Of a DNA stretch of 64,000 nt, positions 61,581-64,000 are shown piece by piece. The position numbers were made by a program, and so were the translations under genes. The notes beneath the pieces were generated by a model that saw nothing but the letters and a program-made list of their open reading frames with translations, was not told the DNA's origin and made no database searches. The stretch is from Escherichia coli (GTDB lineage Bacteria > Pseudomonadota > Gammaproteobacteria > Enterobacterales > Enterobacteriaceae): NCBI RefSeq assembly GCF_001677475.2, contig NZ_CP015229.1; one strand, 5' to 3'. Position 1 is the stretch's first letter. Every line of letters begins with the position of its first letter.

Positions 61581-62375
61581 TTAGTTTCGCAAGTAGATCC
61601 ATTCACCATTCTCTTGTGTCCATAATTCAGGATGGTTTGCTGGCGTTAGATGCATACGATCACTCCTTATGTCTCGGTCCTGCGGCACTCGCTCGAAACC
61701 CAAACCCGAGTAGATTGCTGCTGAACTTGATAAGGAACGCAGACCAATTTTCAAATCATGGGGTAAATCAGAATACGCGTTTAGCAATGCAGCAATGATG
61801 AATCCGAGGGCATTAGAAACGCCTGTAACAGTGCGAAGTTGGTCGATATAAAGATCGATTGTTGGTAGTTCAGATGACCAGCAATTAGGCATTTGGGCAG
61901 GAAGGGTTACAACGTATCCTATCGTTTGGCCGGTATAGTCTGGAGTACCATAACCTGGACCCAAAACAACCTCGTGTATTGTGTATTTACTGTTGGGTTC
62001 GAAGGATTCGACATCTTGCAATAAATATTTCAGTTCTGCGGTTAACCTCGCACCCGCGTAAGCTTTATTGTATTTCTGGGCGTGAATATTATCTAATGTA
62101 GCTTCATGGTTCCATCCAAAAGAATTATCACCATTCATTGTTATTCCATCGTAAGCATTACACCTCGTCGCTAACTTATTGAATGCTTGCCAGCCTGAGA
62201 GATCTAGTTTGTGGATCTCAACAGTATGTCTGCCATCGCAATTATGGTCTCTTCCACGATTTGAAAGTAATGTAGCGCGTGCGTATTGATGAAATTTTAA
62301 TTTTACTGGTTTGTCGGTGGACGAAAAACGGGGTGAATATGCAGGAAATGAATAAATAGTGGTTGGTAATGTCAT
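61581..62375 (-). CDS. yjfZ: Uncharacterised protein YjfZ
   Basis: 264-aa ORF, AT-rich; recalled as K-12 YjfZ. Confidence 0.75.
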   Translation of the reverse strand: MTLPTTIYSFPAYSPRFSSTDKPVKLKFHQYARATLLSNRGRDHNCDGRHTVEIHKLDLSGWQAFNKLATRCNAYDGITMNGDNSFGWNHEATLDNIHAQKYNKAYAGARLTAELKYLLQDVESFEPNSKYTIHEVVLGPGYGTPDYTGQTIGYVVTLPAQMPNCWSSELPTIDLYIDQLRTVTGVSNALGFIIAALLNAYSDLPHDLKIGLRSLSSSAAIYSGLGFERVPQDRDIRSDRMHLTPANHPELWTQENGEWIYLRN

Positions 62376-62645
62376 TGTATCGTTGCCTGTTTAATGTTTT
62401 TATAAATATCTCAGCTGAATGTTTACAGAATAAAGAATCGATATTAATAAAAATAAGTTTGTTTTCTGAAGTAGTGAAAATAGCGGATGGTGAAAGATAT
62501 TAATATCAAAAATCGCTCATTGTGGATATAACGATGCAGCAGGGAGGGGGGATATGATTGACAACGCGTTGGTAAGCGAGGTTCGATAACTCAAGCTTCT
62601 TTAAAAACGCCATAACCTCAATTATAGCGTTTTTATTTAAAATAA

Positions 62646-63923
62646 TTAGTGGGTAGCTAACTGTACTTGTGGTTCTTCATCTTTAACTTTGATAAGCGTC
62701 CACAACGCAATAGCACCAATAATGTCAAAGAAAGCCAGGGCAATAAAGAACGGCGCGAAGCCGATAATGTGAACGAATGCCCCGATGAACAGGTTGAAAA
62801 TCAACTGACCGCTCCACGCACAGGCTCCTGCCATACCCACTGCGGTAGCTACTTCGTCCTTTTTGAACAGATCGCCACCCAGAGTTGCTGCTACAGTAGA
62901 AAGACATTGATGCGAGAACGCGCCAATACTAATCAGTAATACGGCAATGTAGGGATTTTCGACAATACTCACCAGACCAATCGTCATCATAATGACGGCT
63001 GCAATAGTGAAGGTAATTCTTCGTGAGTTAATTAAACTCACGCCGCGATCGTGGAAGAACTTCGCGACAAAACCACTGGCTAAACAGCCGAGATCGCCCA
63101 GCAGGAAAGGCAGCCAGACGAACATGGCAATTTCTTTCAGGCTAAAATGCAGCGTTTCGACGAAGAAAATCGGCACCCAGAAGTTAATGGTTCCCCATGC
63201 CGGGTCTGCGAGAAAACGCGCGATGCCAATCCCCCAGAAATTACGTTGGCTGAGGATATGCTTGATTGACGTTTTTTCTTTCTTATCTGTTTTAAGATGC
63301 TGTTCTTGCCCTGATTCAATATAGTGGCGCTCTTCATCAGAAAGGCGTTTGGCATCTTTCGGATCTTTATAACAAAAGAACCAAAATAAAGCCGCGAGCA
63401 AAGCAAGGCTACCTGAAACAATAAACGCAAATTGCCAGCTATGAAACATAATGCACCAGGCAATCAACGGTGGAGCAAGCATCGCGCCGAGTGAGGTGCC
63501 CATATTGAAAACACCTGTCGCCACGCCACGCTCTTTTGCCGGAAACCATGTTGATGCGGTTTTTACACCTGCCGGAATTGCCGACGCTTCGCTGAAACCC
63601 ATCAGGGCGCGCATAAATGCCAGACCTGACCATGTTCCGGTTAGTGCATGGCCCATTGTCGCCAGGCCCCAAATTGCGGCACATATCGCAAAACTTAACT
63701 TCAGACCTACGGTATCAATAAAGAAGCCCATTACCGGTTGCCCTAATGTATAGGCCAACTGGAATGCACTGACAATCCATGAATATTGTTCTTTGGTTAT
63801 TCCGGTTGTCTCCATAATCGTTGGAGCCGCAATACCTAACGCCGTTCTGTCCAGATAATTGATTACAGTGATAAAGCATACGAGGGCAATCATATGCCAT
63901 CGATAATTCTTTATTTTATTCAT
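62646..63923 (-). CDS. MFS transporter, probably anion:cation symporter (hexuronate/aldonate-type) family
   Basis: 425-aa ORF with about 12 hydrophobic segments and MFS-like motif INYLDRTALGIAAP; not part of the K-12 gene order as I recall it. Confidence 0.7.
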   Translation of the reverse strand: MNKIKNYRWHMIALVCFITVINYLDRTALGIAAPTIMETTGITKEQYSWIVSAFQLAYTLGQPVMGFFIDTVGLKLSFAICAAIWGLATMGHALTGTWSGLAFMRALMGFSEASAIPAGVKTASTWFPAKERGVATGVFNMGTSLGAMLAPPLIAWCIMFHSWQFAFIVSGSLALLAALFWFFCYKDPKDAKRLSDEERHYIESGQEQHLKTDKKEKTSIKHILSQRNFWGIGIARFLADPAWGTINFWVPIFFVETLHFSLKEIAMFVWLPFLLGDLGCLASGFVAKFFHDRGVSLINSRRITFTIAAVIMMTIGLVSIVENPYIAVLLISIGAFSHQCLSTVAATLGGDLFKKDEVATAVGMAGACAWSGQLIFNLFIGAFVHIIGFAPFFIALAFFDIIGAIALWTLIKVKDEEPQVQLATH

Positions 63924-64000
63924 TTTTAAACCTTTTAATTATATTAATAAACCCTGGTTGTTGGTATTTCCATGTAATAGGCAATAAAAATCAGGTACAG

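Follow-up and report, generated by a model that had tools for sequence, protein, structure and literature searches.

The operon end between rplI and ytfB

The DNA analysed here, referred to as the window, is a 64,000-nucleotide stretch of the Escherichia coli contig NZ_CP015229.1 (assembly GCF_001677475.2), and the subject of this work is its last part, positions 61581-64000, which carries yjfZ and a gene for a transporter of the major facilitator superfamily (MFS). After the genes ulaE-ulaF-yjfY-rpsF-priB-rpsR-rplI come the open reading frame (ORF) yjfZ (61581-62375, minus strand; 264 aa, GC 0.424, GC at third codon positions (GC3) 0.358), an AT-rich spacer of 270 bp (62376-62645, GC 0.326) and the MFS gene (62646-63923, minus strand; 425 aa, GC 0.466), whose product is a hexuronate-transporter-like member of the anion:cation symporter (ACS) family. 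We read this region, at a probability of roughly 80%, as the variable end, distal to the promoter, of a catabolic operon under TetR control located between rplI and ytfB, the K-12 arrangement being derived from it by deletion.

The DNA past position 64000 is represented by a proxy, E. coli strain ChlosBP-23-1, the best match among 5426 complete E. coli genomes, whose locus (L001) is 99.6% identical to the window and colinear with it up to base 64000. Beyond the MFS gene, this genome has, on the same strand, genes for a flavin adenine dinucleotide (FAD)-dependent oxidoreductase (690 aa), an acyl-CoA:acetate/3-ketoacid coenzyme A (CoA) transferase (513 aa), an enoyl-CoA hydratase or crotonase (258 aa), a xylose-isomerase-like TIM-barrel protein (280 aa) and a short-chain dehydrogenase/reductase (SDR; 263 aa). 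The transcription order is accordingly SDR, TIM barrel, crotonase, CoA transferase, FrdA-like flavoprotein and, as the last operon gene, the MFS transporter. Divergent from the operon stands a TetR/AcrR gene (L001 22779-23426; 215 aa), the full-length form of ytfA, which overlaps the end of ytfB; the spacer between the TetR and SDR genes of the proxy genome contains a 22-bp palindrome with perfect arms, ATCAACCATCT/AGTTGGTTGAT (L001 22635-22656), which is a candidate TetR operator. At the other end, the flavoprotein and MFS genes are separated by 92 bp with a GC of 26% (L001 16425-16516), most of which lies in the window (63924-64000, GC 0.273). Literature searches with yjfZ, ytfA, DUF2686, rplI plus ytfB, SMc04130, 7VPF and combinations of the enzymes and transporters found no publication describing the operon.

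In overall design, the gene set resembles the cai (carnitine)-type operons, in which a transporter, a CoA transferase, a crotonase-family enzyme and a flavin oxidoreductase likewise stand together in a regulated operon acting on an imported acid. The flavoprotein here, however, is FrdA/NadB-like (FAD_binding_2) rather than an acyl-CoA dehydrogenase, a TIM barrel and an SDR are additional, and there is no orthology at the sequence level, so that the likeness is one of design only.

Five locus states and the deletion in K-12

The distribution of these modules was counted in the 5426 complete genomes by separate megablast searches at a query coverage of at least 80%. The enzyme core with the TetR gene was found in 3110/5426 genomes (57%) and the MFS gene in 1685/5426 (31%), while a three-gene cassette for a transporter of the tripartite ATP-independent periplasmic (TRAP) type (DctP/Q/M; for example L005 10123-12967) takes the operon position of the MFS gene in 1446/5426 (27%). 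As the carriers of the MFS gene and of the TRAP cassette add up to 3131, close to the 3110 carriers of the operon, the two transporters are alternatives. yjfZ is present in 2523/5426 genomes (46.5%), a K-12-type junction in 2227/5426 (41%), and yjfZ contiguous with the MFS gene, as in the window, in 289/5426 (5.3%); since the last two counts sum to 2516, yjfZ is nearly confined to deletion-type genomes and the window state. A helix-turn-helix (HTH) plus HipA gene pair (HipBA-like; for example L003 10144-11905) takes the position of yjfZ in 1041/5426 genomes (19%), and subtraction leaves about 355 genomes (~6.5%) for a bare state in which rplI and the MFS gene adjoin.

Five states can therefore be named, and an example locus of each was inspected: the K-12-type deletion, the TRAP-operon, the HipBA-MFS-operon, the bare MFS-operon and the yjfZ-MFS-operon of the window. 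What varies is the cassette adjoining rplI (none, yjfZ or the HipBA-like pair) and the transporter (MFS or TRAP). The HipBA-like occupant, a helix-turn-helix gene with a HipA-family kinase gene, is a type II toxin-antitoxin-like pair, its HipA gene being frameshifted in the inspected example and intact in others. Further, different occupants of the rplI-side slot are found in Entomohabitans (L010 13657-15169) and Escherichia sp. MOD1-EC7003 (L008 5373-5852), which share a conserved 159-aa ORF after the MFS gene, with an additional 314-aa ORF matching a PHROG of unknown function in Entomohabitans.

Junction mapping, in which the K-12, HipBA, bare-MFS and TRAP types were compared with the window type, places the rplI-side cassette between two terminators. 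The first, at 61532-61558 on the plus strand, is the intrinsic terminator of rplI and the rpsF operon (12-bp stem with 7 G-C pairs and a T-run in a terminator scan), and all locus variants diverge a few bases past it, at about 61564-61567 (shared sequence stopping at L001 14064-14067, equal to window 61563-61566). The second, a hairpin right after the MFS stop codon (62602-62635, minus strand; 14-nt inverted repeat, 6-nt loop, flanked on either side by A/T runs), has a folding energy of -15.6 kcal/mol and a z of -4.5, none of 200 shuffles being as stable, and is the probable operon terminator. Between them lies the yjfZ cassette of ~1.04 kb (61564-62601), whose counterpart elsewhere is either about 30 bp, in the bare type, where this is all that separates the two terminators and the hairpin version has diverged, or the 2.2-kb HTH+HipA pair; in the TRAP type the end of its own transporter cassette occupies the place. 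HipBA-type genomes rejoin the window sequence at 62602, in the left arm of the hairpin, and the TRAP type rejoins at the 3' end of the flavoprotein gene (L001 16526, equal to window position 64025), the MFS and TRAP variants parting in the spacer at 63924-64000.

Within the yjfZ cassette, the AT-rich region upstream of yjfZ (62376-62544, GC about 0.33) is common to K-12-type genomes and 93% identical to the K-12 spacer (158/169). The next 57 bp (62545-62601), which join the yjfZ spacer to the operon terminator, are largely specific to the yjfZ+MFS arrangement: genomes with yjfZ only match to query positions 1038-1071, those with the MFS gene only match from 1103-1106, and about 62572-62601 is covered by megablast only in the 289 window-type genomes. 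A consensus scan of the spacer returned no strong sigma-70 promoter match, and an Rfam search of 61000-64000 gave sub-threshold matches only, overlapping the rplI terminator.

The evidence for a deletion lies in K-12 itself. In K-12-type genomes, colinearity with the window runs from rplI across yjfZ and ends at about 62544; there follow, in K-12, ~100 bp (L002 9042-9151) with 81% identity to an interior segment of the SDR gene and, from L002 9147 onward, sequence that matches the TetR gene from L001 23024. RefSeq marks K-12 ytfA as missing its N-terminus; this partial TetR/AcrR pseudogene (b4205) aligns to the C-terminal two thirds of the L001 regulator at about 97.5% identity and has neither the DNA-binding N-terminus nor the operon, whereas the L001 regulator is intact and has its target operon beside it. 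The SDR fragment and the truncated ytfA together make K-12 a deletion derivative. The left breakpoint zone falls at 62533-62562, where an imperfect similarity of ~30 bp to the SDR gene (L001 about 22362-22392) is found, and an alignment of the window, the K-12 type, strain DETEC-P649 and the SDR gene shows a switch point from spacer to SDR that differs slightly between K-12 and DETEC-P649. Many deletion-type genomes, including O157:H7, also carry IS609, an insertion sequence (IS) of the IS200/IS605 family (tnpA plus tnpB/insQ; for example L086 5508-7149), within the ytfA stump.

Base composition follows the same modular division. The mean GC of the window is 0.515 and that of 61581-64000 is 0.430, the lowest of all 2420-bp stretches in the window; the AT-richness of the yjfZ/MFS spacer is matched by only 0.5% of the window's 270-bp windows, and the MFS gene alone is mildly low (10th percentile). 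By module, GC amounts to 50-55% in the enzyme genes, 47% in the MFS gene, 41-45% in the TRAP genes, 45-46% in the HipBA-like pair, 42% in yjfZ and 40% in the TetR gene, so that the AT-richness belongs to the exchangeable modules and not to the operon as a whole. Elsewhere in the window, AT-rich dips at 54550-54999 and 59650-60099 (GC 0.32-0.36 and 0.40-0.42) correspond to the divergent promoter regions ulaG<>ulaA and yjfY<>rpsF, the former of which is listed as an H-NS site (PMC3946193). The nearby ulaE gene is intact in the window (57800-58654, 284 aa) and has an internal stop in ChlosBP-23-1 (L001 10299-11153), so that the window comes from a different strain.

In E. albertii and E. whittamii, both in the bare MFS state, and in Entomohabitans teleogrylli, where the gene order is that of the E. 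coli operon, the operon likewise lies between rplI and ytfB; the MFS proteins of E. whittamii and Entomohabitans teleogrylli are 99% and 77% identical to that of the window, respectively. A survey reported that every E. albertii and E. fergusonii strain, but only some E. coli, had ytfA (PMC6790063). These observations bear on the view, taken in an earlier note on this DNA, that a K-12-like arrangement is the ground state and that the strain acquired an accessory catabolic island between yjfZ and ytfA/ytfB. That the genes are absent from K-12, that the window end is AT-rich and that the arrangement with yjfZ is rare (289/5426) would all suit such an acquisition, which we nevertheless hold to be very improbable: the operon is carried by 57% of E. 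coli and has the same location in E. albertii, E. whittamii and Entomohabitans, its enzyme genes have a GC typical of E. coli, and the internal SDR fragment and the TetR gene without N-terminus kept by K-12 already contradict it. No integrase occurs at the locus in any inspected state, no tRNA gene in 56000-64000, and no target-site duplication or flanking direct repeat at the cassette ends, and with all three hallmarks absent the locus is not a classical integrative island. The real insertions or swaps here are yjfZ itself and the transporter module.

The earlier interpretation was thus half right. Its ORFs and the AT-richness of yjfZ, spacer and MFS gene were confirmed in coordinates and GC; the strain variability it proposed is borne out by the low count of the contiguous arrangement; its statement that ytfA/ytfB, and no transporter, follows yjfZ in K-12 proved correct; and the catabolic cluster it suspected past 64000 is indeed present, as enzyme genes and a TetR gene, in the proxy genome. 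Variability and a neighbouring catabolic cluster are both real, but the difference arose by loss of this cluster from K-12 and not by its gain in the strain.

In the history that we propose, an operon with the MFS gene would be ancestral in Escherichia, and the insertion of yjfZ beside it would have given the window state. Two deletions would then have led to the K-12 state, the first, from a short stretch of the spacer to a similar one within the SDR gene, removing the MFS gene through most of the SDR gene, and the second removing the SDR 5' end, the promoter and the TetR N-terminus; in another lineage, the TRAP cassette would have independently replaced the MFS gene. Confidence in this exact order of events is moderate.

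Several points weigh against the reading of the region as the variable end of an operon lost from K-12. The window ends 16 bp short of the flavoprotein stop codon, and the operon is therefore read from the proxy genome and not from the window; the state counts are not a per-genome cross-table; and ~68 genomes (1.3%) fall outside all five states, one example being a larger IS-mediated deletion. On the substrate side, distant relatives give mixed signals, the transporter being PcaK-like in Brenneria and ShiA-like in Raoultella, the alpha-proteobacterial context consists of a sugar ABC transporter, 2-keto-3-deoxygluconate (KDG) kinase and GMC oxidoreductases, and we know of no described hexuronate pathway with CoA esters. 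Finally, the yjfZ allele of the window nests among deletion-type alleles, being near-identical to some of them (7/795 differences to DETEC-P649) and, with 21 differences, no closer to K-12 than they are, and the SDR remnant of the K-12 type is only 81-85% identical to any intact Escherichia allele, far more diverged than yjfZ and the spacer (93-97%) or the flanks as a whole (yjfZ, spacer and ytfA stump, 93-99%).

The two allelic points, together with the frequent recombination to which five states at one locus testify, would be expected if the window state were a later mosaic, formed by recombination of a yjfZ-bearing deletion-type genome with an MFS-operon genome, and not a precursor of K-12. 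We consider this fairly unlikely. Homologous recombination between the other states could not have joined yjfZ to an intact MFS gene, since a left crossover in rplI would replace yjfZ; a right crossover in ytfA/ytfB would delete the operon. The 57-bp join at 62545-62601, absent for the most part from the other states, fits instead what is expected of an intermediate that preceded the deletion, as the proposed history would have it.

Transporters, enzymes and a possible substrate

The MFS protein has its best NCBIfam match in TIGR00893 (315.1 bits, E 6e-94, below the curated cut-off of 395), and all its NCBIfam matches are MFS families; a 100%-identical database protein (P0029) carries PF07690 (MFS_1) and PF00083 (Sugar_tr), and a crude 19-residue scan gives 10 hydropathy peaks, where the family fold has twelve transmembrane helices in two halves of six, and a long loop in the middle, at 184-264. 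Proteins of Providencia, Edwardsiella, Yersinia rohdei, Pantoea ananatis, Gilliamella and Orbus share 80-85% identity with it. The Providencia (83-85%) and Gilliamella (81%) homologs lie within uxaC-uxuB-uxuA loci with a GntR-family (FCD) regulator, and the loci of the Edwardsiella and Pantoea homologs have no hexuronate catabolic genes (uxaC, uxuA, uxuB, exuR/uxuR) alongside. With ExuT, the hexuronate:H+ symporter of K-12 (b3093) and Erwinia/Dickeya, the protein shares family, length and architecture, and it is 47% identical to K-12 ExuT over the full length; it is, however, a paralog and not the E. coli ExuT ortholog, and its gene sits among CoA-dependent and flavin enzymes instead of an isomerase pathway.

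The alternative TRAP cassette, which lies outside this window as an allelic counterpart, points in a similar direction. The top matches of its DctP-type binding protein are 4OVR, 4X8R and 4N8Y, which we take to be hexuronate binders, and its best solved relatives include 4N15, 4N91 and 4MHF (E 6e-66 to 7e-60). Of these, 4N91 (Apre_1383) binds glucuronate, 4MHF (Bpro_3107) binds glucuronate or galacturonate, and 4N15 (Bamb_6123) served as the modelling template for the hexuronate-binding protein STM3169 (PMC7660916). The resemblance to these hexuronate TRAP transporters, among them STM3169-3171 of S. Typhimurium, is that of the binding protein, a putative hexuronate binder. That two unrelated uptake systems at one operon position both look like hexuronate importers is the strongest clue to the substrate class.

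This clue would lose its force if the MFS gene were a stand-alone second hexuronate transporter, an ExuT paralog placed beside an unrelated CoA-dependent operon and uninformative on its substrate. The identity of 83-85% to transporters in classical uxaC/uxuAB loci, a GC below that of the enzyme genes, the preceding 92-bp AT-rich gap, which could hold a promoter, and a CoA chemistry unlike known hexuronate routes are all compatible with such independence. It is nonetheless a distinctly unlikely arrangement, given that the MFS gene is co-oriented with the flavoprotein gene at a distance of 92 bp, that the only strong terminator comes after it, and that Entomohabitans keeps the gene order; moreover, that exactly this position can also hold a TRAP transporter with a hexuronate-binder-like protein would be difficult to account for if the position did not serve the uptake function of the operon.

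The enzymes themselves give less direct guidance, as their solved relatives are structural-genomics entries of no known function or are generically named. The oxidoreductase is a soluble FrdA/NadB/TfrA-like flavoprotein with an FAD_binding_2 match in NCBIfam and Pfam, which excludes an assignment of the 690-aa protein, by analogy with the bai operon, to the Old-Yellow-Enzyme/FadH-type enoate reductases. The CoA transferase (family I) resembles YdiF (E 5e-115 to 2AHU), the TIM barrel is near 3QC0 and 3JU2, structural-genomics proteins of no known function (E 1e-84), with 7VPF as a further solved relative, and the SDR has an NCBIfam model of its own, PRK12745, with 4DA9 and 4ONE as solved relatives. 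Relatives of the flavoprotein (324) occur in proteobacteria, Planctomycetota, Lentisphaerota and Verrucomicrobiota, and the gene neighbourhoods of 80 homologs were inspected. The commonest neighbour was a levoglucosan-dehydrogenase-like enzyme of the Gfo/Idh/MocA family (32 loci), other common ones being GMC oxidoreductases, LacI regulators, SDR, TIM barrel, KDG kinase and sugar ABC transporters; further loci combine a CoA transferase and a crotonase with an acryloyl-CoA-reductase-like dehydrogenase and Etf. The hints that these 80 neighbourhoods give on the substrate are mixed and yield no one answer, and the theme they share is that of a hydroxylated carboxylic acid, probably cyclic, handled via oxidation, elimination and reduction.

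A working model can nevertheless be outlined. The TetR protein would repress the divergent promoter, with the 22-bp palindrome as its candidate operator, and the incoming acid or its CoA ester would lift the repression; the MFS protein would import a hexuronate-like hydroxy-carboxylate by proton symport, and the enzymes would then oxidise, rearrange or dehydrate, reduce and CoA-activate it. In a more specific version, which we put forward tentatively and ourselves regard as doubtful, the operon would be an undescribed CoA-dependent route for a hexuronate or a related cyclic hydroxy-acid (uronic or of quinate/shikimate type), and YjfZ and its paralog YjiC may be divergent enzymes of the GCN5-related N-acetyltransferase (GNAT) fold linked to hexuronate loci. 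The SDR, the xylose-isomerase-like TIM barrel and the FrdA-like flavoprotein would form the core that oxidises, eliminates and reduces, and the YdiF-type CoA transferase and the crotonase would finish the route. To our knowledge, the enzyme set of the operon matches no hexuronate pathway; such a route, if it exists, would have gone unstudied because the operon has been deleted from K-12, O157 and other model strains.

yjfZ, its paralog and the meaning of the locus

The earlier note found no recognisable domain in YjfZ, which holds only in part: Pfam PF10887 (DUF2686) matches at E 2.1e-151 over model positions 17-285 of 285, and DUF2686 is itself a domain of unknown function. YjfZ is restricted to Escherichia: full-length homologs were found only in E. 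coli and E. albertii, an exhaustive search for relatives returning mostly fragments and two spurious matches to repeat proteins, and a phage origin found no PHROG match. YahL and YdjO were considered as paralogs; YahL is without similarity, and the paralog is instead YjiC (K-12 b4325), which is 42% identical over 226 residues and shares DUF2686 from a different locus. Both paralogs adjoin hexuronate-related genes, yjfZ lying by the ExuT-like MFS gene and yjiC by uxuR-uxuB-uxuA-gntP; yjiC stands beside uxuR-uxuB-uxuA in both K-12 and E. albertii (L098 4491-5321 and L093 10001-10822).

Compared with the K-12 allele, yjfZ shows 9 synonymous and 10 non-synonymous codon differences, a dN/dS of roughly 0.36, which suggests a real gene under weak constraint. 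This orphan gene is transcribed separately and does not belong to the operon. The K-12 spacer yjfZ<>ytfA binds RpoD holoenzyme, is a constitutive-promoter site and is flagged HNS (PMC3946193), and from these K-12 data yjfZ is probably H-NS-bound.

An AlphaFold2 model of YjfZ, built on a shallow alignment with a mean pLDDT of only 45, has the order of elements of a GNAT fold at residues 51-243 (beta1-alpha1-alpha2-beta2-beta3-beta4-alpha3-beta5-alpha4-beta6), and the top 50 Foldseek matches of this model in the PDB are all GNAT acyltransferases, with E from 3e-4 and TM of 0.3-0.56. At the sequence level, Pfam gives DUF2686 only, and neither NCBIfam nor a PDB sequence-profile search has a match at E 10. 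The GNAT fold is accordingly a weak lead and not a finding.

A quantitative PCR probe published as 'YjfZ' (PMC11057252) matches K-12 yjiC with one mismatch (L098 4986-5015) and has no match in the K-12 yjfZ locus (L002), and the corresponding forward primer has no match in the window with 3 mismatches allowed. As only 46.5% of the complete E. coli genomes have yjfZ, the gene would be a poor species marker, and its occurrence in under half of them bears on its proposed use as a marker for E. coli.

As a kind of locus, the end of this operon is familiar, combining a polymorphic operon end, module swaps and a deletion scar. It provides a countable one-locus example of modular exchange, with uptake by either an MFS or a TRAP transporter and an end cassette that is nothing, yjfZ or a HipBA-like pair, and it explains the K-12 pseudogene ytfA as what is left of a regulator gene whose operon persists in most other E. 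coli. The combination of this enzyme set with hexuronate-type transporters is sufficiently unusual to deserve experimental follow-up, and the operon, present in 57% of complete genomes, gives the search for new pathways in commensal and extra-intestinal strains a concrete target.

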